From the UHGV virus genome UHGV-0132372: a stretch of 36,038 bases of DNA, one strand, 5' to 3'. Positions 4,589 to 35,988 of the stretch are shown here, piece after piece; position 1 is the stretch's first letter; every line of letters begins with the position of its first letter. The translations under genes and the position numbers were made by a program. This DNA comes from a virus. The notes under the pieces were generated by a model. It did not search any database. It was not told the origin of the DNA and saw only the letters and a list, made by a program, of their open reading frames with translations.

Positions 4589-4698
4589 TTAGACCTCCAT
4601 TTTCTGTAGGCTTCGACGGCCTCACCAAACATCTTTTCATCGCCAATAAAAGTGGCGATAGTGAATTTAGTCTGAATAGCCATAAGTGTTTTATCCAT
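4585..4698 (-). CDS. small protein, possibly Kil-like (by synteny after cIII)
   Basis: ATG overlaps the cIII stop (AATGGATAA); 37 aa, MDKTLMAIQTKFTIATFIGDEKMF...; the longer ORF-track version (4585..4788) would overlap cIII in another frame. Confidence 0.4.
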   Translation of the reverse strand: MDKTLMAIQTKFTIATFIGDEKMFGEAVEAYRKWRSK

Positions 4699-4837
4699 TT
4701 TTTGGAACTCCTGGCTGATTAAGTACGTCGATGAGTCGTTTCCATCCGTCACGTAATTTACGGGTGATTCGTTCAAGTAAAGATTCATTTAATTGGAAGG
4801 CACCCATGCGAGCGCCTCCCGCGATTGCGTAAATCAT
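4691..4837 (-). CDS. cIII: CIII-like regulator (FtsH inhibitor)
   Basis: Not in the ORF track (48 aa). AAGGAA RBS; translation MIYAIAGGARMGAFQLNESLLERITRKLRDGWKRLIDVLNQPGVPKNG matches the lambda CIII core ESLLERITRKLRDGWKRLID.LNQPGVPKNG. Confidence 0.8.
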   Translation of the reverse strand: MIYAIAGGARMGAFQLNESLLERITRKLRDGWKRLIDVLNQPGVPKNG

Positions 4838-6492: not shown

Positions 6493-6942
6493 TTACTTAA
6501 CCAATGATGCTGCATATTCGATAAGGTAAAGCTTTGGGGCCAGCCAAATTTTTAACCAAGTCATATTGGTTACTACACCAATAATAAAAATCCCCCACAG
6601 AGTCAAAACTACAACCAATGGCATGATAAGAAGATTAATATCACCTTTGCTATCCCAAACCATTGTCGGCCTGTATTTGGGATTTCCTTTCTCCCATGAA
6701 TATCCTTCATCACCGATTTTACCTGTCTCAACTCTTTGGCACTGCTTCTTCATAAACCAGAAAACCAGTGGGATTGTTAGAATGGCCATTAATGTTTTAA
6801 TCAGACTGTCAACCATATTCCATAGCAGCAACTGATGAACAACATCAGGAATCTGTGCCTGGCTAAATGAAACAGCCGCGTCTATTCCATTACTGGCTTT
6901 TTGCAGTAGTTCTACGAGAATCTTGTTTGCTTGTTCTTCCAT
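6493..6942 (-). CDS. membrane protein with two predicted TM helices (possible superinfection-exclusion type, by position)
   Basis: Hydrophobic segments LIKTLMAILTIPLVFWFM and LLIMPLVVVLTLWGIFIIGVV; GAGGTGA RBS; AT-rich; lies in the N-to-cIII accessory slot. Confidence 0.55.
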   Translation of the reverse strand: MEEQANKILVELLQKASNGIDAAVSFSQAQIPDVVHQLLLWNMVDSLIKTLMAILTIPLVFWFMKKQCQRVETGKIGDEGYSWEKGNPKYRPTMVWDSKGDINLLIMPLVVVLTLWGIFIIGVVTNMTWLKIWLAPKLYLIEYAASLVK

Positions 6943-6990
6943 ATCTCACCTCAAATAATTCAGTGCAGTGTTTATTCTGTTGTTTATGCC

Positions 6991-7012
6991 AAAAGAAGGC
7001 CGACTATGCGGC
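6991..7012 (-). terminator. second copy of the terminator-like element (weaker stem)
   Basis: GCCGCATAGTCGGC hairpin followed by CTTCTTTT on the minus strand; copy of the 6448..6486 element. Confidence 0.3.
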
Positions 7013-7022
7013 ATAATTATTT

Positions 7023-7211
7023 TTAACTATCATCAATACATGGCACTTTATTCCAGTCGATATCGTTTTTATTGTCGTCCCACATGTCTTTGTTTTTGTA
7101 TTTCTCGCTACATCCTAGGCAAATGTTGTATGGCCTACCGATAAGGTTTAACGAAATACGTTGCATTTCATTTGATTCAAACATGTATCCACAGAACTGA
7201 CATTTATGCAT
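7023..7211 (-). CDS. small zinc-ribbon-like protein (62 aa, CxxC...CxxC)
   Basis: MHKCQFCGYMFES...NICLGCSEKY; AT-rich; flanked by the repeat elements. Confidence 0.45.
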   Translation of the reverse strand: MHKCQFCGYMFESNEMQRISLNLIGRPYNICLGCSEKYKNKDMWDDNKNDIDWNKVPCIDDS

Positions 7212-7293
7212 ATCTCACCCCTCATACAGTAGCTTACTGCCTAATTTCATTTTCTGGCGACCAACACAAGTCACACCCATTTCACTGCGTGGC

Positions 7294-7351
7294 TTGCGGT
7301 AGCTCTACGAGAATCTTGTTTGCTTGTTCTTCCATATATCACCTCAAATAA
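7294..7351 (-). pseudogene. duplicated RBS plus first 12 codons of the 6493..6942 membrane-protein gene (truncated remnant, MEEQANKILVEL then out of frame)
   Basis: 58 bp matches 6901..6958 with 3 mismatches and is fused by a TTGC microhomology to a 28-bp copy (7270..7297) of N-gene sequence 7591..7618. Confidence 0.6.
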
Positions 7352-7535
7352 GTGGTTTGCTGCGAAAGTAAATACGCTTAAGTTACCTGTTATTTATCCC
7401 ACCAAGTTCCGTATCTATCTATCCAGTTACACCAATCATCGACACTCCATTTTGTTGTGTCGCATTTTGGCAACTGGCATGAATATCTACCTTCTTTGTA
7501 AAGTCGGCGTTTGACTTTCTTGAGCATGGCTCACC

Positions 7536-7868
7536 TCAATCGTAATAAGCTGGAATTGATTTTCCGCGTTGCTTCTGGCGGCCTGAGCATGTCACACCCA
7601 TTTCACTGCGTGGCTTGCTGTACCATGTGCGATGATTCTTGCGCTCAACAGCTTCAGCGCGTTTTTCCATCTCTTCCCGATACTCAGCCAGCACCGTTAA
7701 ATCAATCGGGTTCAGAGCGCTTTCTACGCGTGATTTAGGCTTTCGAGTCAGCGAGAGAATTTTGCGGGTGTCTGGCTTGGCGCTTACCCCAACTAACAGG
7801 GGGTTTGCTGCTTTCCATTGAGCCTGTTTCTCTGCGCGACGTTCGCGGCGGCGTGTTTGTGCATCCAT
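7536..7868 (-). CDS. N: antitermination protein N
   Basis: Translation MDAQTRRRERRAEKQAQWKAANPLLVGVSAKP...RVESALNPIDLTVLAEY matches lambda N (Arg-rich boxB-binding N-terminus); AGGAGA RBS; nutL lies upstream. Confidence 0.9.
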   Translation of the reverse strand: MDAQTRRRERRAEKQAQWKAANPLLVGVSAKPDTRKILSLTRKPKSRVESALNPIDLTVLAEYREEMEKRAEAVERKNHRTWYSKPRSEMGVTCSGRQKQRGKSIPAYYD

Positions 7869-8136
7869 CTGGATTCTCCTGTCAGTTAGCTTTGGTGGTG
7901 TGGTGGCTGGTAGTCTAGCTCCAGCTTGTTGAGTCTCATTCGGAGGGGTATAACCGGCACCCCAGTGATTTTTCCATGCGACAACGTGCGCGTTATGGCG
8001 GCCTTATCGCCCGCGGCTCCCCATCTCGTCCACGCTATTGCTAGCGTTGGGAGCGCTTCACCGCTCAACAGTAGGTAAGCACTTGCCAGTGACTAGCTGG
8101 CTTCACCACACCCCAAAGCCTTCTGCTTTGAATGCT

Positions 8137-8166
8137 GCCCTTCTTCAGGGCTTAATTTTTAAGAGC
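8137..8166 (-). promoter_or_regulatory. nutL (boxB GCCCTGAAGAAGGGC, boxA GCTCTTAAA on the minus strand)
   Basis: Plus strand reads GCCCTTCTTCAGGGCTTAATTTTTAAGAGC, the reverse complement of lambda nutL; lies between pL and N. Confidence 0.8.
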
Positions 8167-8206
8167 ATCACCTTCATGGTGGTCAGTGCGTCCTGCTGAT
8201 GGCTAG

Positions 8207-8268
8207 ATAATCACAAATTGTGTTCGTGCTGTCAACACGAAATGTGATTGTTTTTATCACAACACGTG
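8207..8268 (-). promoter_or_regulatory. pL promoter with three oL operator repeats
   Basis: Minus strand TTGACA (8230..8235), 17-nt spacer, GATTAT (8207..8212); operator-like repeats ATCACA-N4-GTG at 8210..8222, 8236..8248 (inverted) and 8256..8268. Confidence 0.6.
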
Positions 8269-8308
8269 TTTTCATTGATTTTTAAGGTAATTTAATTTTC
8301 TTTGGGCA

Positions 8309-8331
8309 ACAAAAAACCCGCCGAAGCGGGT
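8309..8331 (-). terminator. intrinsic terminator downstream of the repressor gene
   Basis: ACCCGCTTCGGCGGGT hairpin followed by a U-run on the minus strand, just after the cI stop and before pL. Confidence 0.5.
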
Positions 8332-8356
8332 TTGATGTTTTTAAGTGGCGGGTATA

Positions 8357-8998
8357 TCAGGAGAATTTCATCATCATCTGCACTGCTACGCCGATTATCT
8401 TGCAGTTGCCGTCGATTGGGATCAACGGATAGGCAGGGTTAAGCCCTTTCAGGTATTTGTTACCGCCATCAATGATTAGCTTCTTGAACGTGGCTTCATT
8501 AGCATCTGTCAGCTTCGCAACTACCAGGCTTCCATTAACGGCTTCCTTTCCAGTGTCGAACAGAACCAGCATACCCTCAGGAACGCTAAGGCCGGTAGGA
8601 GCTGTCATTGAGTCGCCCTGAACCCTGAGCCAGAAGGCGTCACCGACAACGTGACAATCTGATTCATACCACTCATCCACTGCCTGAGGGTTGTACGGCT
8701 CTACGGCCTCACTCCATGCACCTGCGCTAACCCAGCTAATCAACGGAAACTTTTCCCCTGGCTTGTATTGTCCCTGATAGTTGTCGCCAAAAAGCAGTTC
8801 TGCCGGAGCGACGCCCAAAGCTTTAGCTATTACCTCTGCGTCATCAACACTAACGCTTCTGGTTCCTGATTCATAGTTGCCGATCCGAGATTGTGAAGCC
8901 CAGCCGCAAAGCTCCGCCAGCGCCTTCTGTGAAAGCCCTTTATCTTCCCGTAATCGCTTGATACGCGCGGCGATAGTTTCTGTTCTGTTCATGCGCAT
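8357..8998 (-). CDS. cI: CI/C2-type prophage repressor (HTH plus LexA/S24-like autocleavage domain)
   Basis: N-terminal HTH (LSQKALAELCGW...NYESG); C-terminal domain PLISWVSAGAW...VQGDSMTAP...VVAKL...ATFKKL matches the P22 C2 / lambda CI S24 domain; divergent from cro across the operator region. Confidence 0.85.
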   Translation of the reverse strand: MRMNRTETIAARIKRLREDKGLSQKALAELCGWASQSRIGNYESGTRSVSVDDAEVIAKALGVAPAELLFGDNYQGQYKPGEKFPLISWVSAGAWSEAVEPYNPQAVDEWYESDCHVVGDAFWLRVQGDSMTAPTGLSVPEGMLVLFDTGKEAVNGSLVVAKLTDANEATFKKLIIDGGNKYLKGLNPAYPLIPIDGNCKIIGVAVQMMMKFS

Positions 8999-9003
8999 TT
9001 TAT

Positions 9004-9069
9004 ATCACATTCCGTGGTTTAAGGCTTTACACGATTTGTGTTGACTATCAATCACAATATGTGTTTAAT
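9004..9069 (+). promoter_or_regulatory. oR operator repeats and pR promoter
   Basis: Three ATCACA-N4-GTG-type repeats (9004..9016, 9030..9042 inverted, 9052..9064); TTGACT (9041..9046), 17-nt spacer, TTTAAT; AAGGAA RBS for cro follows. Confidence 0.55.
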
Positions 9070-9102
9070 AAAGACTGAGTGAACTAGCTCTTAAGGAAAC
9101 CT

Positions 9103-9318
9103 ATGAACAACATTGCCAACGAACGGAAAAAGCTTGGCATCACTCAATCTGCGTTAGCAGGCGCGTGTGGCTGGAACCAGTCCCGCTTAGCTAACTACGA
9201 GTCAGGTATCCGGACTCCAGATTTAGAGTCGTGCCGTCGCCTGGTAAAGGCGCTGAATAAATTGGGGAGCAAGACAACGCTAGATGGCTTGTTCCCGCCG
9301 GAACACAAAGCCGCTTAA
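9103..9318 (+). CDS. cro: Cro-like HTH repressor
   Basis: 71 aa; HTH LGITQSALAGACGWNQSRLANYESG resembles the repressor HTH; divergent from cI. Confidence 0.7.
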   Translation: MNNIANERKKLGITQSALAGACGWNQSRLANYESGIRTPDLESCRRLVKALNKLGSKTTLDGLFPPEHKAA

Positions 9319-9326
9319 GACATTCC

Positions 9327-9358
9327 CGCTCTTACACATCCCCGCCCTGAAAAAGGGC
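9327..9358 (+). promoter_or_regulatory. nutR (boxA CGCTCTTAC, boxB GCCCTGAAAAAGGGC)
   Basis: Direct match to the lambda nutR boxA and boxB sequences between cro and cII. Confidence 0.85.
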
Positions 9359-9437
9359 ATCAAATTAAACCACACCTATGGTGTATGCATTTATTTGCAT
9401 ACATTCAATCAATTGTTATCTAAGGAAATACTTACAT

Positions 9438-9731
9438 ATGGTTCGTGCAAACAAACGCAACGAGGCTCTACGAATCGAGAGTGCGTTGCTTAACAAAATC
9501 GCAATGCTTGGAACTGAGAAGACAGCGGAAGCTGTGGGCGTTGATAAGTCGCAGATCAGCAGGTGGAAGAGGGATTGGATTCCAAAGTTCTCAATGCTGC
9601 TTGCTGTTCTTGAATGGGGCGTCGTCGACGACGATATGGCTCGATTGGCACGACAAGTTGCTTCGATTCTCACCAATAAAAAACGCCCGGCGGCAACCGA
9701 GCGTTCTGAACAAATCCAGATGGAATTTTAA
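9438..9731 (+). CDS. cII: transcriptional activator CII
   Basis: Translation MVRANKRNEALRIESALLNKIAMLGTEKTAEAVGVDKSQISRWKRDWIPKFSMLLAVLEWGV... matches lambda CII essentially end to end; ATG at 9438 (the ORF-track start at 9378 is an upstream extension). Confidence 0.9.
   Translation: MVRANKRNEALRIESALLNKIAMLGTEKTAEAVGVDKSQISRWKRDWIPKFSMLLAVLEWGVVDDDMARLARQVASILTNKKRPAATERSEQIQMEF
9675..9703 (-). terminator. oop-type antisense terminator (to) inside the cII 3' end
   Basis: Plus strand AATAAAAAACGCCCGGCGGCAACCGAGCG is the reverse complement of the lambda oop RNA 3' hairpin and U-tract. Confidence 0.55.
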
Positions 9732-9752
9732 CTGCTTTCTATGGAGTTAATT

Positions 9753-10553
9753 ATGGCAAAAAAACCTACACCAGACCAGGTAAAAAAGATTCGTTCCGGC
9801 ATTACCAAGAAAATACGGTTTGAGGTTTTCAAGCGCGATGGCTTCAAATGCCAGTACTGTGGGAGTTCTGCGCCAGACGTCATCCTTCATGTCGACCATA
9901 TCAACCCAGTTAGCAAGGGTGGCGATAACGACATGATGAACCTTATTACTTCTTGCGATAGTTGTAATGGCGGGAAAAGCGACAAACTGCTCAGCGATAA
10001 CTCAATAATGGAAAAGCAAAGGCAGCAACTCCAGGAACTTAATACCAAGCGAGAGCAACTGGAGATGATGATCAAGTGGCGAGATGGTCTTAAGAGCCTG
10101 AAAGACGATGTTGTTGATATTGTCGCTACCAAAATTGACGACTGCATTGCGCCATTTACTGTTAATGACAATGGGCGAAAATCTATCAAGAGATGGCTTC
10201 GAATATATAAGCTTGAAGAAATCCTCGATGCGATTGAGATTGCTGCAGACAAAAAACTCACCCAAGAAATAACCCATGAGCTTACTGGTGAATTCTTTGA
10301 GTACATCCCTCGCATAGCAGCGACAAAAAGAAAACCGCCAAAAGAACAAAGGATTCTATACATCAGAGGAATCCTTAAAAACCGCATATATATCAATCAA
10401 AACCATGTAATGAGTTATCTCAAGGCATGGCTTTCATACGACTTAGATCTCGATGAACTTACTGAGTTTGCGAAAACAGTACCTAACTGGACAACGTTCA
10501 AGGAGTGGGTATCTGAACGCATTCGTGAAGCTCAGGAAGAACTCCCGTACTAA
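9753..10553 (+). CDS. HNH endonuclease-domain protein (N-terminal HNH, unknown C-terminal domain)
   Basis: Motif FKCQYCGSSAPDVILHVDHINPVSKGGDNDMMNLITSCDSCN; GGAG RBS before the ATG at 9753 (alternative ATG at 9741); sits where lambda has the start of O. Confidence 0.65.
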   Translation: MAKKPTPDQVKKIRSGITKKIRFEVFKRDGFKCQYCGSSAPDVILHVDHINPVSKGGDNDMMNLITSCDSCNGGKSDKLLSDNSIMEKQRQQLQELNTKREQLEMMIKWRDGLKSLKDDVVDIVATKIDDCIAPFTVNDNGRKSIKRWLRIYKLEEILDAIEIAADKKLTQEITHELTGEFFEYIPRIAATKRKPPKEQRILYIRGILKNRIYINQNHVMSYLKAWLSYDLDLDELTEFAKTVPNWTTFKEWVSERIREAQEELPY

Positions 10554-10564
10554 AGGTGGACAAA

Positions 10565-11452
10565 ATGGCACGTTCAAGAAATATCAAACCAGGCTTTTTC
10601 ACCAATGATGAATTAGCTGAGTGTTCTCCATATGCCCGTCTCCTTTTTGCCGGGTTATGGACTATTGCTGACAAAGAAGGGCGGTTGGATGATCGCCCAA
10701 AGAAAATTAAAGCAATGGTACTGCCTTTCGATGATGTGGACTGCAATGATCTGCTTCAGCAACTTCACAGTCACAAATTCATCAATCGATATCAGGTAAA
10801 TGGCGGCTCATATATCCAAATCAATAACTGGAAAAAGCACCAGAACCCTCACTGCAAAGAAGCGGCCAGTGAGATACCAGAACCAGTAGAGAATAATAAC
10901 AGCATCCTGCAAGTACAGTGCAAGGACGATAAAGAGGAAGAGAAGGAGGATACAGAATCACTTCAAGTCATTGAAAACAATGAAGCACCAGAAAAGCACC
11001 ATGCAAGTACAGTGCAAGAACAAGTTGAGAACAGTTTAAATCCTGCTGATTCCCTTAACCTGATTCCTGATTCCCTTAACCTGATTCCTGATTCCCTTTC
11101 TAACACCCAAGCCGCTGACGCGACTTGTGAAGGGGGTGGGGCTGATGTCCATAAAATTTCAAGTCGCTATGCATTCGAAGGAAATATCGTTCGGTTAAAC
11201 CACAAGGATTACGAAGCATGGAAGCGCCTGTATCCGAACATTGACCTGAATTACGAGCTGGAAAGGCTGGATATCGAATTTAGCCATGAGAAGCCAAAGA
11301 ACTGGTTTATCACTGCCAGCCAGAAACTCAGCTACCAGAACAAGCAGGCGTTATCCAGACCGGTACGCAAGGTTGCTAATGGACTTAAGGCTGAAAACTT
11401 TGCCACCAAGGATTACGGACAAACTGAAATGCCTTCATGGGCGCAGGAGTGA
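10565..11452 (+). CDS. putative replication initiator / replisome organiser
   Basis: Position between cII and the DnaC-like loader; AAAGGTGGA RBS; internal iteron-like DNA repeats encode a DSLNLIPDSLNLIPDSL linker. Confidence 0.55.
   Translation: MARSRNIKPGFFTNDELAECSPYARLLFAGLWTIADKEGRLDDRPKKIKAMVLPFDDVDCNDLLQQLHSHKFINRYQVNGGSYIQINNWKKHQNPHCKEAASEIPEPVENNNSILQVQCKDDKEEEKEDTESLQVIENNEAPEKHHASTVQEQVENSLNPADSLNLIPDSLNLIPDSLSNTQAADATCEGGGADVHKISSRYAFEGNIVRLNHKDYEAWKRLYPNIDLNYELERLDIEFSHEKPKNWFITASQKLSYQNKQALSRPVRKVANGLKAENFATKDYGQTEMPSWAQE
11047..11095 (+). repeat. iteron-like direct repeats (TGATTCC x5; 21-bp unit TGATTCCCTTAACCTGATTCC x2) - candidate ori
   Basis: Direct repeats visible in the sequence, inside the initiator gene as in lambda ori within O. 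Confidence 0.5.
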
Positions 11453-11454
11453 AC

Positions 11455-12300
11455 ATGACGCTGGATGAAAAGATCTCCCAACTGGAGAAAAAACTTGCAG
11501 AATTGAGTTCTCCGCCAATTGCTATCGAGCATACAGCTGTAGAAATTGGCACTGGCATCTGTGAAAAACACGGTGAGTTTGAGCAGCGTAACCGTTACTC
11601 GACTGGGCCAATTAAGTTTGCCTCAAGACCTAGCGAATGCCCGGAATGCATGAGAGATGAGCTTATTCGGCTACAGGCAGAGAAGATTAAAATCGACGAA
11701 GAATCACGTAAGCGCAATGTCGAATTTCTGTTGAATAATCTTGATATTCCTGAACGATTCAAGGGTTGCACACTACAGAACTACGAGCCAGTCAACGACG
11801 ATGCAAAGAGAGTGCTCAGGGTGTGTCAGGCATACGCCAGCAAATGGCCTGAGAGGTTACAGAAAGGCGGTGGGCTGGTTATGTGTGGAAAGCCTGGTAC
11901 TGGAAAGAATCATCTTGCACTGGCTATCGCCCGGCACGCAATTACGGAACATCAAAGCTCAGCTATTTTCACAACGGCGCTGAAAATTGCCAGAGAATAT
12001 AAATCAACATGGTCGAAAAACTCCACCCGCACTGAGGATGAAGTGATCCGACAGTTCACTAAACCTGACCTGCTAATTATCGATGAGGTTGGTGTGCAGT
12101 TTGGAAGCGAGGCGGAAAAGATGATCATGTTCGAAATCATCAACACCCGCTACGAGCGCATGAAGCCAACAATCCTGATTAGTAATCAGAGCAAAGATGA
12201 ACTTTCGGCATTCATTGGTGAGCGTGTTATTGACAGGATGAATGATGGCGGAGGGTGCACTCTTGCGTTTACATGGGATAGTTACAGGAGCAGATCGTGA
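11455..12300 (+). CDS. DnaC-like helicase loader (IstB-like AAA+ ATPase)
   Basis: Walker A GKPGTGKNHLALAIA and Walker B LLIIDEVG; GGAGTGA RBS before the ATG at 11455 (the ORF track starts at 11437). Confidence 0.8.
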   Translation: MTLDEKISQLEKKLAELSSPPIAIEHTAVEIGTGICEKHGEFEQRNRYSTGPIKFASRPSECPECMRDELIRLQAEKIKIDEESRKRNVEFLLNNLDIPERFKGCTLQNYEPVNDDAKRVLRVCQAYASKWPERLQKGGGLVMCGKPGTGKNHLALAIARHAITEHQSSAIFTTALKIAREYKSTWSKNSTRTEDEVIRQFTKPDLLIIDEVGVQFGSEAEKMIMFEIINTRYERMKPTILISNQSKDELSAFIGERVIDRMNDGGGCTLAFTWDSYRSRS

Positions 12301-31801: not shown

Positions 31802-33798
31802 TGGCTAAAGCATGGAAAGATGTTATCGCCTCTCCACAGTATCAGGCGTTAGCACCAGAACAAAAAGCGCAGGCTCAGGAGCAATACTTCAATGAAGTCG
31901 TGGCCCCGCAAGCCGGAGAAAATGCAGAGCAGGCTAAGCAAGCTTTCTATGCTGCCTATCCATTGCCATCTGCGCAGCCAGTTGATACACAGCAACCAGT
32001 AGCACAGCAACAACCACAGCAAAGTGGATTTATGTCTGATCTTGGCGAAGCAGTAAAAGAGACTGGTCGCGGACTGGTACAGGCTGGCGTGAACGTGGCA
32101 AACATACCTGCATCAGTTGCCGATGCTGTAACAAGCGCGGCGGCATGGGCTGGCGGTAAACTCGGTATTGGTGATGGTACATATCAACCAGCGCCACGAG
32201 TAACAACGCAGGGATTAGAGCAGGACTTTGGCCTTCAGCAAGGCGCGCTGACTCCACAAACTACAGAGGGAAGGGTATTTGCTGAGGCATTGCCTTACCT
32301 CACTCCTGCTGGCATTGAGAGAGCGGCAACACAGGCACCAACACTCGCTGGTAGAATTGCTCAGGGTGCAACTCGCCTTCTCGCTGAAAACGCAGTCGGG
32401 TCACTTGCTGCAAATAGTGCGAAAGATGATGCGGAAGCCCTCGCCACCGATTTAGGCGTTGGTGTGCTGGCTGGCGGTGCTATTAACGCTGCCGGACGTG
32501 GATTAGGTGCTGCTTATCGTGGCGTTCGTGGTGCTATTGCGCCAGAAGCGCAGCAGGCTATCAGATTTGCAGAGCGTGAAGGAGTTCCTCTGCACACCAC
32601 AGACCTGTTACAGCCTACTTCCCGCGTCGGAAAAATGGCGCAGACGACAGCGGAAAATATCCCCCTGGCTGGCACAAGCGGAATGAGAGCAACGCAACAG
32701 GAAGCGAGAAGCCAGTTGGTGCAGAGATTTGCTGATAAATTCGGTGAGTATGATCCAGCAGTTGTTATTGACAGCCTTAAAGCGAAAACATCAGGAATTC
32801 GTCGTGCCGCCGGGAACCGTCTTGAGCAGGTTCAGAATGCAATGGCGGGAGTCAATATCCAGCCTGCGCGAGCAATTCAGCAGATTGATACAGAAATATC
32901 TAACCTGCAGAAGCTTGGTAAGGTCGCCGATAACGAGACTATTTCAAAACTTCAGTCCTATCGTGATGAGCTTGTTCGCAATGCTGGCCCTGATGGTCCG
33001 GTAAATCTGGACTTGAAGCAATTAAGCGATCTGCGCAGCCAGTTCAGAATGGACGTGAAGGGTGAGCGACCAGTGTTACCAAACCGTTCCGATGCCGCCA
33101 TTCAGCGCGTTTACAAGGCGATGACCGACGATATCAATGGTGCCATTGGTCAGAATCTTGGCAACGATACTCTCCGTAAATATCAGCAGGCCAATGCCGT
33201 CTACGCTGACGAAGCGGCGAAACTCAAGAATACCAGGCTGAAGAATGTTCTCATGAAAGGCGATCTGACGCCGGAAGTTGTCAATAACATGCTATTCAGC
33301 AAGAACAAATCTGAAATTAAGACACTGTATAACTCAGTTGGTCGTGTTGGCAGGGCGCAAATGCGCAATGGCATCATTGGAAAGGCGATGGAGAAATCAG
33401 GTGGATCCCCTGACCAGTTTCTGAGGCAGGTTAATTTGATGTCTAACCAGACGGGAATTGCGTTCAAAGGGCGTGATGCTGCGTATCTGAAAGGGATGAA
33501 GAACTACCTAGAGTCGACCAAGAGAGCAGGGCAGGCCAGAGTCACAACGCCAACTGGTCAGCAGGCTATACCGTTCATTATGGGTATAGGCTCTGTAGTA
33601 AATCCTAAAGTAGCTGCAATTGGTGGTGGCTACGGACTTCTTGCAAGAATGTATGAAAGCGAACCTGCACGCAATGCAATGCTTCGCCTGGCTAATACAC
33701 CGAGAGGCTCAACCGCATTTGAGAAAGCGTTATCTGATGTCGAACGTGTTGTTAACTCATTCGCTCAGGGTGCTAAATCAGAAGCTTTAAGCGAATAA
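31801..33798 (+). CDS. ejection protein (gp16-like)
   Basis: Gene order and size (665 aa). Confidence 0.65.
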   Translation: MAKAWKDVIASPQYQALAPEQKAQAQEQYFNEVVAPQAGENAEQAKQAFYAAYPLPSAQPVDTQQPVAQQQPQQSGFMSDLGEAVKETGRGLVQAGVNVANIPASVADAVTSAAAWAGGKLGIGDGTYQPAPRVTTQGLEQDFGLQQGALTPQTTEGRVFAEALPYLTPAGIERAATQAPTLAGRIAQGATRLLAENAVGSLAANSAKDDAEALATDLGVGVLAGGAINAAGRGLGAAYRGVRGAIAPEAQQAIRFAEREGVPLHTTDLLQPTSRVGKMAQTTAENIPLAGTSGMRATQQEARSQLVQRFADKFGEYDPAVVIDSLKAKTSGIRRAAGNRLEQVQNAMAGVNIQPARAIQQIDTEISNLQKLGKVADNETISKLQSYRDELVRNAGPDGPVNLDLKQLSDLRSQFRMDVKGERPVLPNRSDAAIQRVYKAMTDDINGAIGQNLGNDTLRKYQQANAVYADEAAKLKNTRLKNVLMKGDLTPEVVNNMLFSKNKSEIKTLYNSVGRVGRAQMRNGIIGKAMEKSGGSPDQFLRQVNLMSNQTGIAFKGRDAAYLKGMKNYLESTKRAGQARVTTPTGQQAIPFIMGIGSVVNPKVAAIGGGYGLLARMYESEPARNAMLRLANTPRGSTAFEKALSDVERVVNSFAQGAKSEALSE

Positions 33799-34083: not shown

Positions 34084-35988
34084 ATGTCAGACATTACACC
34101 CAATGTTGTAGTGAGTATGCCTTCGCAACTCTTCACTATGGCTCGTTCTTTTAAAGCCGTAGCTAATGGTAAAATTTATATCGGTAAAATTGACACTGAC
34201 CCGGTAAATCCTGAAAACCAGATTCAGGTTTATGTGGAAAATGAAGACGGTTCTCACGTTCCTGTTTCGCAACCAATCATCATTAACGCTGCTGGATATC
34301 CGGTATATAACGGACAGATTGCCAAGTTCGTTACTGTGCAAGGCCATTCCATGGCTGTTTATGATGCGTATGGGGCGCAACAATTCTATTTTCCAAACGT
34401 ATTGAAGTATGATCCAGATCAATTAGAAAGCAGGTTGTCGGAAACTAATAGTACAGTAATGATATCTGGAGTAACCGCATCAAAAATAGCAAGTAATGTT
34501 ATTGCAACAGAATATCTTGAGTCGCCAAATGTATATGATGTGTTTGTTACGTATGGGCAGTCAAATAGCGCAGGTGAGGCTATTTTATCTGGCGATACGT
34601 CAGGCTTTCCTGCCGCTCTGCCGAAATCACTAATGTATGATTTTAGTGATGGAGCAATAAAGCCAATTATACAGAATGTGGTTAGTTCTTCTGGCGTTGC
34701 ATCATCTGGACATGCATGGGGGGAATTCGAGAATGAATGGTATCGCCTTAGCGGGCGCGGTTCAGTGGAGGTACACTGCGGCCGTGGCGCAACTACCATT
34801 GCACAGCTATCAAAAGGGACCACATACTACACGCTGTTGGTAAATGCCGTGGCGTCAGCTAAACAGGCAATGATTGCCGCTGGTTTGCCTGTCGGTAAAA
34901 CGTACGTGATGTACCACCAGGGTGAGTCGGATATGACGGCAGGGACAACATACAATGCTTATAGAGACAGCTTTATAGCCTTGATAGATGATCTGAAAAC
35001 CGATATTAATTTTGATTTATTTTGTAATTTTACCGTTGGTTGCCCGGGGAACCGAACGGAAGAATCATGGGCTGCTATTCAAAATGCGCAAAGGTGGGTT
35101 TGTAATAGCAAGACTAACGCTGTGACAGTATTTGACGGTTGCCCTTCATTTTTAAAAGGCGATGGCAATATTGGCACTACTGATGGAGGCGTTCACTATA
35201 CGCAACGCGGTTACAATACAATGGGGCGAGAAGGTGCCAGAGGATTATGGTCATTAGTTAAAGGTGGGGCAAGCAATAAAACCTCAACCGATTTAGCACA
35301 ATATTCAAATTTTGCCCCACCGTGGACAAGGGCGAAATTAGTCGCCGGTACTATTAAATACAGCAATGATAACGCTAAATGGGTTCTTTTATCTAAAGAA
35401 GTAAACAGTGAATGGAAAGTTTCCAATGCCCATAAATTAGTTGTTTCTGCTGATGGGGAATATTTTTCTGTAGAAATTGCAGACAATGCCGAAAACTGGT
35501 TTTATGCCGCCGCGGGCGTCGACCGCGCTACAGCTATAACAGGTGTCAGGTCCTACGCAGAACCTCTTCGTGTGGGAAATGCATTCACATTAAAAATTAC
35601 TATGCATGCCGACGTTTCTTTCCTTGTTAATACAAAAACAGGAGTCATTCGTTATGGAAGACCGCCTTCAGGCTCTGGTGTCCCAGAGTGGATTAGAAAT
35701 AATATCTCTGTTTCTGTGGTGAGTGCTGGCATCGTGGAAATAACGCATGGCCGCACTGCAACAATGCCATCAGCAACATATTACGCCACTAGTGACGGAA
35801 CATTATCTGCGGCAAATGTATCTGTATATGCCGGGTCAACCACAACGACAAGAGTTTATTGTGATAAAGCAAACACTGATAATCCCTGGGTGGTTGTTAC
35901 ACTTAGAGATTTACTAATTACTCCTGCCAACATGCAACATTACGATATTTCAATTAACTTTAACGGAATTTATGCGCCATCCGCATGA
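34084..35988 (+). CDS. tailspike: P22-type head-binding domain fused to an SGNH/SASA-like esterase receptor domain
   Basis: N-terminus [12 protein letters not shown]...[23 protein letters not shown]...[13 protein letters not shown]...NVLKYDPDQ matches the P22 gp9 head-binding domain; downstream GQSNSAG and HQGESDM motifs; start placed at ATG 34084 (the ORF track extends to 33988). Confidence 0.8.

Follow-up and report, generated by a model that had tools for sequence, protein, structure and literature searches.

An early control region of a mosaic lambdoid phage whose immunity module matches that of mEp213

Classical lambda imm434 and imm21 hybrids carry a substituted block that begins at pL and stops where cro ends. 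Lambda itself arranges its control region in the order N, nutL, pL/OL1-3, cI, OR3-2-1, cro, nutR, cII, and oop terminator. Among the other lambdoid phages, mEp213 has been reported as an immunity group of its own, separate from that of lambda, and lambda/mEp213 double lysogens have been constructed (PMC3442831). Here, we describe the control region at positions 7536–9731 of a viral genome of 36,038 nucleotides (UHGV-0132372; the window), which has the order and geometry of lambda and a substituted block with the same limits as in the classical hybrids. Judged by its sequence, this region is an ordinary, intact lysis-lysogeny switch of a lambdoid phage and a textbook module swap of an already known type. 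We consider it very probable that the window belongs to a P22-like, mosaic lambdoid coliphage (or a prophage of that kind) and contains its complete early control region, with an mEp213 immunity module set between lambda-type segments and a mosaic structure generated via short conserved boundaries. The module and its boundaries comprise the following features.

8188..8201, no strand: left module boundary, conserved block GCGTCCTGCTGATG at the pL transcript start; junction 8201/8202
8207..8235, minus strand: predicted pL; -35 TTGACA (8235-8230), 17-nt spacer, -10 GATTAT (8212-8207)
8209-8225, no strand: predicted operator OL1, AATCACAAATTGTGTTC
8233-8249, no strand: predicted operator OL2, CAACACGAAATGTGATT
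8255-8271, no strand: predicted operator OL3, TATCACAACACGTGTTT
8314..8333, no strand: bidirectional intrinsic terminator downstream of cI; 8-bp stem, 5 GC pairs, a T run on each side
8357..8998, minus strand: cI, with an N-terminal HTH_3 domain and a LexA-like S24 self-cleaving domain
8999..9027, minus strand: candidate pRM; -35 AAGCCT, 17-nt spacer, -10 TATAAA
9003-9019, no strand: predicted operator OR3, TATCACATTCCGTGGTT
9027-9043, no strand: predicted operator OR2, TTACACGATTTGTGTTG
9041..9069, plus strand: predicted pR; -35 TTGACT (as in lambda), 17-nt spacer, -10 TTTAAT
9050-9066, no strand: predicted operator OR1, AATCACAATATGTGTTT
9103..9318, plus strand: cro, encoding an all-helical HTH_3 protein of 71 aa; stop at 9316-9318
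9319..9324, no strand: right module boundary; similarity to ECP1 and WEM25 stops at 9319, similarity to lambda starts at 9325

The immunity module (8202–9324) thus consists of OL1-3 with pL, the terminator, cI, OR1-3 with pRM and pR, and cro. A lambda-type N/nutL segment lies to its left and a lambda-type nutR/cII/oop-terminator segment to its right, and the head, tail, and lysis genes in the remaining window are P22-like. Alignment to known immunity types, the check named beforehand, returned a single mismatch in 1,123 bases (1,122 of 1,123 match) to both mEp213 (JQ182733 / NC_019720) and CurroJimenez_Bas106 (PQ850599), whose immunity region is the same as that of mEp213; the six operator 17-mers, cI (213 aa), and Cro (71 aa) match both phages exactly, with 0 differences, which makes the region ordinary but mosaic. 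Because of this match, the cI/cro/operator set is not a new type, and the sequence assigns the immunity type to one already known, imm-mEp213. The lambda-type cI, Cro, and TATCACCGC-type operators that characterize imm-lambda are absent.

The original prediction had instead presented the region as a previously undescribed hybrid with unusual, asymmetric operators and with one junction at the cI stop and the other at that of cro. The lack of nucleotide similarity between the module and lambda would fit that account, as would the pairing of one ATCAC with one AACAC half-site in most of the operators and the absence of operator annotation from the mEp213, Bas106, and ECP1 records, but the match of the module and its six operators to mEp213 and Bas106 makes it extremely improbable. 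Furthermore, four to six of the eight symmetric positions are matched in each operator, exactly as in lambda's own operators, so asymmetry does not set these sites apart. The left junction lies not at the cI stop but at 8201/8202 (pL +1), 155 bp to its left, with OL1-3 and the terminator in between; the right junction was correctly placed at the cro stop, with lambda similarity returning from 9325.

Both ends of the module are abrupt. To the left, 8107–8201, including nutL boxB, boxA, and the pL transcript start, is 98.9% identical to lambda 35489–35583, and to the right, 9325–9727 matches lambda 38247–38649 at 97.8% identity and includes nutR, cII with its leader, and the oop terminator, whereas blastn found no match to lambda in 8202–9324; at either end, an identity to lambda of 99% gives way within a few bases to none that can be detected. 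Such borders could also be those of an old, vertically diverged lambda immunity region in which no swap took place and rates of change were unequal. In line with that explanation, the scaffold resembles that of lambda (17-bp operators, their spacing, and positions A2/C4/A5/C6), the -35 elements are shared with lambda, as is the Shine-Dalgarno sequence, and cI aligns with lambda cI over its full length, with the equivalents of Gln33, Gln44, and Ser45 retained. Vertical divergence is nonetheless hard to reconcile with the drop in identity at both ends or with the recurrence of the same block elsewhere: 8188–9319 is 98.4–99.1% identical in phage ECP1 and in an E. coli WEM25 prophage, where similarity begins exactly at 8188 and ends at 9319 and both flanks are unrelated. 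HK544, a lambda-immunity phage, has the same flanks around a different block. We therefore regard divergence without exchange as improbable. Incongruence between flank and module phylogenies across phages is suggested by a small sample. A deep common ancestry does not conflict with a recent exchange; what is excluded is "no exchange" alone.

The modular immunity swapping that had been proposed is upheld by the finding of one block in ECP1 and in an E. coli prophage amid flanks that are unrelated. The mosaic would have arisen by recombination within short conserved boundary sequences, one at the pL transcript start and one just after cro, and the boundaries used are those that bound the module in other phages too. 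In an alignment of the window, lambda, mEp213, ECP1, and HK544, the GCGTCCTGCTGATG block is common to phages whose sequences to its left and right differ, and it is also present in mEpX1. The full-length module was found in 14 of 5,426 E. coli genomes.

The six operator repeats are real, forming two clusters of three far above chance. Their core is CAC-N5-GTG, and the pattern AWCACNNNNNGTGWT has four exact matches, all within the two clusters, where shuffled sequences lead one to expect 0.20. Centers are spaced 24 and 22 bp apart in OL and 24 and 23 bp in OR, compared with 24/20 and 24/23 in lambda. OR3-OR2-OR1 lie in the interval from the start of cI (8992/8998) to that of cro (9103), collinear with the OR of lambda and mEpX1, and the predicted OL1-3 overlap pL, with nutL and N downstream. 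Lambda operators have in common with those of the window a 17-bp frame, near-equal spacing, and half-site positions A2/C4/A5/C6; the main difference is the center, CGC in lambda versus A/G-A-N-T-T/C in the window. On a matrix of the window's operators, lambda operators score 0.1–4.7 bits (OR2, 10.1) versus 12.7–20.5 for the window's own sites. In the literature searched, we found no published operator map of mEp213, and the papers on H-19B and Stx phages gave operators of other types only.

Predicted pL and pR each have 10 of 12 hexamer matches. The former, from a promoter scan, overlaps OL1 and OL2 and is collinear with lambda pL; the -35 of the latter is invariant in an alignment of the window, lambda, and mEpX1. 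The candidate pRM hexamers are weak (7 of 12 in a relaxed hexamer scan). A pRM start site near 8992 would yield a leaderless cI mRNA and would place the center of OR2 at about -42, as in lambda. The terminator at 8314–8333, found on both strands in a terminator scan, is the counterpart of lambda Timm, and HK544 carries an annotated Timm at the equivalent place. The rex genes are absent between cI and OL.

The cI protein has Pfam matches to Peptidase_S24 (3e-25) and HTH_3 (3e-14), and aligned with the lambda repressor (3bdn) it shows VSAG/VQAG, GDSMT/GNSMT, and FKKLI, with the Ala-Gly site, Ser, and Lys in register. Identity to lambda cI is 33.6% at the protein level. Translation likely starts at the second ATG (8992), giving 211 aa, and the Bas106 record annotates a 636-nt version of cI. 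The next-best full-length cI matches, Serratia phage OS31 and phage HF4s (51–55%), were considered as guides to DNA-binding specificity and were rejected, as the likeness is confined to the C-terminal domain and their N-terminal domains are lambda-like with different operators. Cro matches HTH_3 (1.3e-12), and its helix-turn-helix resembles that of cI in a local alignment with the cI N-terminal domain (CGW-NQSRLANYESG versus CGWASQSRIGNYESG). A tblastn search of the window with lambda Cro gave no match, and the window's Cro is outside the lambda Cro fold family. The original prediction was accordingly right that cro and the operators are not lambda's; it also described the repressor DNA-binding domain as non-lambda, which holds, but the entire cI gene, not that domain alone, is without nucleotide similarity to lambda. 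The locus has the hallmarks of a lambdoid switch, namely divergent cI and cro with three operators and overlapping divergent promoters between them, a second tripartite operator at pL, and a helix-turn-helix plus S24 repressor that carries both an Ala-Gly site and the Ser/Lys dyad.

Outside the module, the features are as follows.

4691..4837, minus strand: cIII homologue, 48 aa; core ESLLERITRKLRDGWKRLID retained; stops 6 codons before lambda cIII
7536..7868, minus strand: N antiterminator, 110 aa; Pfam N36, E = 9e-23
7916..8106, minus strand: N-leader middle allele, 191 nt, 57% GC; replaces lambda 35409-35488
8137-8151, minus strand: nutL boxB, GCCCTGAAGAAGGGC, identical to lambda
8160-8167, minus strand: nutL boxA, UGCUCUUA; lambda has CGCUCUUA, and one base differs (U for C)
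9327-9334, plus strand: nutR boxA, CGCTCTTA, identical to lambda
9344-9358, plus strand: nutR boxB, GCCCTGAAAAAGGGC, identical to lambda
9438..9731, plus strand: cII, 97 aa; 96 of 97 residues identical to lambda cII
9447-9460, minus strand: predicted cII binding site of pRE, TTGC-N6-TTGC
9680..9707, minus strand: oop-type terminator within the cII 3' end; 12 pairs then a T run; identical to lambda

The nut sites, cII leader, cII, and oop terminator had been called lambda-like, and flanks 98–99% identical to lambda bear this out. For N, the description is accurate for residues 1–32, the arginine-rich boxB-binding motif, which are identical to those of lambda N, but the C-terminal third has diverged and overall identity is only 82% (81.8% for DNA 7552–7915). 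The components of lambda-type N/nut antitermination are present, with the arginine-rich motif and with boxA and boxB at both nutL and nutR. Likewise, cIII is lambda-like in identity (76.8% by tblastn with lambda cIII; DNA 4596–4786 is 93% identical to lambda 33228–33418) but ends 6 codons early. Lambda similarity ends at 9727, and beyond it lies a weak pO candidate (TGGTCT-17-CATAAT, 8 of 12, with CATAAT at 9750–9755); the lambda pO -35 is lost. Since the pO promoter falls in non-lambda sequence here, production of oop RNA is uncertain.

Within the N leader, 7916–8106 has no similarity to lambda. The arms flanking it still form the long basal stem of the lambda leader fold (window z-score, -4.0). 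The allele is 99.6% identical in HK544, HK633, HK446, mEp213, mEp043, Sf6, Sf101, and Bas106 and is present in 58 of 5,426 E. coli genomes; no second copy was found within the window. An Rfam scan of 6500–10500 at E ≤ 1 returned nothing, and the allele and oop are outside described RNA families. An open reading frame at 7886–8068 (60 aa, TTG start; hypothetical in Bas106) was rejected as a gene, having no Pfam match and lying inside the structured leader. A possible second home of the allele in E. coli P276M was also dismissed, as the partial match marks the junction of a deletion in a prophage that has decayed; it falls under a "packaged DNA stabilization protein" pseudogene.

Directly left of N, the window shows recombination scars and partial gene duplications. 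These, together with the shortened cIII and the missing lambda pO -35, could be taken as signs of a prophage in decay, with this region reduced to an inactive remnant that no longer works as a switch. However, the N, cI, cro, and cII reading frames are all intact, the window's genes for replication, lysis, and the virion are apparently complete as a set, and the plaque-forming phages mEp213 and Bas106 carry identical cI, Cro, and operators. An inactive remnant is therefore most unlikely.

For an intact switch, a working model can be proposed by analogy with lambda. Dimers of cI on the six 17-bp operators would shut off pL and pR, and cI at OR2 would probably activate the weak pRM. Upon SOS induction, the LexA-like domain of cI would cleave itself, and Cro may then occupy the same sites and turn pRM off. 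N loaded at the lambda-type boxB hairpins would allow transcription to pass terminators, and cII would activate pRE.

The significance of these findings lies mostly in annotation. The immunity type can be named (imm-mEp213), the six operators, pL, pR, and the candidate pRM receive coordinates that public records of mEp213, Bas106, and ECP1 are without, and the exchange boundaries of the module are now placed, one where the pL transcript starts and one at the cro stop.

Of the phages compared, mEp213 is 97% identical over 7573–9640, having in common with the window N, the N-leader allele, nutL, nutR, and most of cII. It differs at the end of N (the final 12 codons) and in the genes to the left of N, where the window follows Bas106 instead. 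The match to mEp213 ends at 9640 and that to Bas106 at 9440; beyond these points, the window departs from them in the 3' end of cII, which is lambda-like in the window, and in the genes that follow. The window's virion genes are P22-like rather than mEp213-like. Lambda has near-identical nut sites and cII and is distinguished from the window by the latter's lack of rexA/rexB, HTH_3 Cro, and replaced N-leader middle.

The mEpX1/VT1-Sakai-type phages and Citrobacter phage Chris1 have a Cro of the same type, a repressor N-terminal domain 64–67% identical to the window's, and operators of the CAC-N5-GTG kind that score within the range of the window's sites on its matrix. The repressors differ in the recognition helix (ASQSRIGNYES in the window versus AAPSRLGNYEL in mEpX1), and mEpX1 carries two additional genes in the interval from cI to OL. 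We think it possible but rather doubtful that the operators of the mEp213, mEpX1/VT1-Sakai, and Chris1 immunity types are nearly interchangeable by sequence, with a half-site aA(T/A)CAC(A/G) and lambda's 17-bp frame and A2/C4/A5/C6 positions. If such a likeness holds, partial cross-repression between co-resident prophages may occur. Of wider interest is how such close operator sets (mEp213, mEpX1, and partly lambda) sustain separate immunity specificities. The published list gives mEp213 and mEpX1 an immunity group each (PMC3442831), and if their heteroimmunity is real, discrimination must lie in subtle features, for which the central bases, DNA shape, cooperativity, and the Gln-to-Pro change that starts the recognition helix are candidates.

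The early control region at 7536-9731 is a hybrid immunity region whose described anatomy is real and mostly rightly labelled, and it is an ordinary one: its immunity type is known, the same combination has been sequenced before, and the module boundaries are standard. The original prediction had allowed that an exact operator match to a known type would make the region ordinary, if still mosaic. Such a match was found, since cI, Cro, and all six operator 17-mers are identical in mEp213 and Escherichia phage CurroJimenez_Bas106 (Bas106). Over 8202-9324, the window shows 1 mismatch in 1123 bases against mEp213 and likewise against Bas106, within an N-to-cII stretch common to both phages (7573-9640, 97% to mEp213; 7333-9440, 96.5% to Bas106). 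Among 5426 complete E. coli genomes, 14 carry the module at full length. The Mexican coliphage collection from which mEp213 comes has 46 lambdoid members in 19 immunity groups (PMC11893012); the mEp213 group is stated to be separate from that of lambda, and lambda/mEp213 double lysogens have been made (PMC3442831).

Comparison with the whole lambda genome by blastn gave three matches within the region. The first, 7552-7915 (lambda 35047-35408, 81.8%), covers N and its ribosome-binding region; the second, 8107-8201 (lambda 35489-35583, 98.9%), covers nutL and the pL transcript start; and the third, 9325-9727 (lambda 38247-38649, 97.8%), covers nutR, the cII leader, and cII.

Lambda-like features of the flanks
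4691-4837, minus strand, cIII homologue, 77% identical to lambda cIII
8201 to 7869, minus strand, N leader RNA, non-lambda at 7916-8106
8137-8151, nutL boxB, lambda sequence
8160-8167, nutL boxA, UGCUCUUA, one base off lambda's CGCUCUUA
nutR boxA, CGCTCTTA
9344-9358, nutR boxB, lambda sequence
9447-9460, pRE site TTGC-N6-TTGC
9680-9707, minus strand, oop terminator

The nut sites, cII (96/97 identical to lambda cII), and the oop terminator are thus as lambda-like as proposed, the nutL boxA mismatch being the sole difference in the 95-bp lambda-identical nutL segment. For N and cIII the likeness is partial. N (110 aa; Pfam N36, E=9e-23) equals lambda N over residues 1-32, including the arginine-rich boxB-binding motif, and diverges in its C-terminal third, with DNA identity of only 81.8%; the cIII homologue stops six codons before the end of lambda cIII (48 versus 54 aa), with the central conserved helix region intact.

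A second non-lambda stretch, missed by the original prediction, lies within the N leader at 7916-8106 (blastn). The lambda transcript forms a long stem between nutL and the start of N, and the base of this stem is also predicted to form in the window by pairing of GGCUUUGGGGUGUGGUG with CCACCACACCACCAAAGCU. This stem would enclose a 191-nt, 57% GC multi-hairpin insert versus 80 nt in lambda, and the predicted fold energy of the window leader is -127 kcal/mol (z = -4.0). The stretch is 99.6-100% identical across ~11 phages and recurs in 58 of 5426 E. coli genomes, unannotated in every one, and it has no Rfam match; despite this near-identity, the N coding sequence beside it differs by up to ~15%. 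It is an alternative allele of the mid N leader that public sequences already contain.

Left of N are three direct-repeat pairs, at 6901-6958/7294-7351 (95% identity), 7252-7301/7573-7622 (86%), and 6465-6501/6991-7027 (76%). One repeat is a stray copy of the N 3' end, and another is a copied start of a 149-aa open reading frame (6493-6942, minus strand) that has hydrophobic stretches and no Pfam match and lies in roughly the same place as lambda sieB. The repeats resemble scars left by recombination at the join between an mEp213-like left arm, which reaches 7301, and a Bas106-like segment that runs from 7333 and brings in a DUF5484 gene (7390-7527).

Over 8202-9324, blastn against the whole lambda genome detected no nucleotide similarity. 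This block contains, from left to right, three operators over pL, a terminator, cI, three operators, and cro, without rex genes.

Features of the non-lambda module
8217, 8241, 8263, OL operator centres, CAC-N5-GTG core
pL, predicted, TTGACA-17-GATTAT, overlapped by the three OL operators
8314-8333, predicted bidirectional intrinsic terminator
8357-8998, minus strand, cI, HTH_3 and Peptidase_S24 domains
pRM, weak candidate, AAGCCT-17-TATAAA, 7/12 matches
9011, 9035, 9058, OR operator centres, CAC-N5-GTG core
9103-9318, cro, 71-aa HTH_3 protein, stop at 9316-9318

The cI protein aligns over its full length with lambda repressor at 33.6% identity and retains both the Ala-Gly site of cleavage and the catalytic Ser/Lys pair. 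At the DNA level, the non-lambda character assigned to its DNA-binding domain extends to the whole gene. Cro is non-lambda, as proposed: lambda Cro as query had no match in the window, and the helix-turn-helix of the module's Cro (CGW-NQSRLANYESG) is close to that of cI (CGWASQSRIGNYESG).

On the left, the window equals lambda through GCGTCCTGCTGATG (8188-8201, the pL transcript start) and diverges from 8202. This 14-bp block is common to phage ECP1, a prophage of E. coli WEM25, and mEpX1, all of which are unlike the window further left. ECP1 and the WEM25 prophage resemble the window from 8188 to 9319, one base past the cro stop, and similarity to lambda begins at 9325. The right junction therefore falls at the cro stop, as predicted; the left junction, previously set at the cI stop, lies instead at 8201/8202, 155 bp away. 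With junctions at the pL transcript start and after cro, the exchangeable unit is pL/OL through cro, the same unit as in the classical imm hybrids. HK544, a phage of lambda immunity, has the same flanks as the window with the lambda block between them, so that exchange is seen both ways.

The six operator repeats are well supported: of 13 CAC-N5-GTG cores in the 36-kb window, 6 lie in two 63-bp clusters and 7 are scattered (about the number expected by chance), and the stricter pattern AWCACNNNNNGTGWT is matched exactly 4 times, each time inside a cluster, versus 0.20 expected from shuffles. Taken as 17-mers, the operators give 12 half-sites with the consensus a-A-(T/A)-C-A-C-(A/g)-(A/t), in which CAC occurs in 12/12 and A2 in 11/12. 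The asymmetry attributed to them is normal for lambdoid operators, since 4-6 of 8 positions per operator are symmetric, the exact range of lambda's six. The frame is also that of lambda, with centre spacings of 24/22 and 24/23 (versus 24/20 and 24/23 in lambda), the same -35 hexamers (TTGACA at pL, TTGACT at pR), and the same half-site positions 2, 4, 5, and 6; differences are concentrated in the central five base pairs. In the lambda repressor-operator complex, Gln33, Gln44, and Ser45 contact A2 and the C4:G pair. Equivalents of these residues are kept in the window's cI (HMMER alignment), from which it is reasonable to infer that it reads the outer half-site as lambda repressor does.

The switch most likely works as follows. 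Dimers of cI on OL1/OL2 and OR1/OR2 would block pL and pR. Measured from the predicted pR start, the centre of OR2 lies 41 bp upstream; measured from 8992, the start of the candidate pRM, it lies ~42 bp upstream, and this arrangement reproduces lambda's activation geometry. The cI mRNA is predicted to be leaderless and to start at the second ATG, in agreement with the 636-nt cI annotated in Bas106. On SOS induction, cI would cut itself at the Ala-Gly site and so release the promoters from repression, and Cro would then bind the same sites as cI. Antitermination would come from N on the lambda-type boxB hairpins, and pRE would be driven by cII. The lambda-like cII contains the oop terminator, which is therefore kept; the lambda pO -35 is lost because lambda similarity stops at 9727.

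Features downstream of cII
pO, weak and the only candidate left, TGGTCT-17-CATAAT, -10 overlapping the start codon of the HNH endonuclease gene
9753-10553, plus strand, HNH endonuclease gene (Pfam HNH, 1e-13), directly 3' of cII
10556-11452 and 11437-12300 (287-aa open reading frame), replication genes

The HNH gene occupies the position where O starts in lambda, and phages Louie and Dewey have one in the same place after cII. The window as a whole is a coliphage or prophage of mosaic, P22-like (Lederbergvirus-type) make-up: over its right two thirds it matches, at ~94-95%, the terminase, portal, coat, ejection, and tailspike genes of E212, CUS-3, Sf101, and other such phages, and no end-to-end match was found among E. 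coli genomes or phages of the collections searched.

The literature lists mEp213 and mEpX1 in different immunity groups (PMC3442831); their sequences do not show how the two discriminate, the only aspect of some remaining interest. Among distinct repressors, the N-terminal domains nearest to the window's belong to mEpX1/VT1-Sakai-type phages (64%) and to Citrobacter phage Chris1 (67%), and the operators of mEpX1 and Chris1 are of the same CAC-N5-GTG type as the window's.

CAC-N5-GTG operators elsewhere (coordinates within each sequence)
2162-2230 and 4688-4752, mEpX1 (sequence L013)
1704-1793, Chris1 (sequence L011)

A matrix derived from the six operators of the window scores the mEpX1 sites (10.7-18.4 bits) and the Chris1 sites (10.8-20.7 bits) as high as the window's own (12.7-20.5 bits, leave-one-out), even though mEp213 and mEpX1 count as separate groups; the lambda operators score 0.1-4.7 bits, OR2 apart (10.1), with a background maximum of 11.6.
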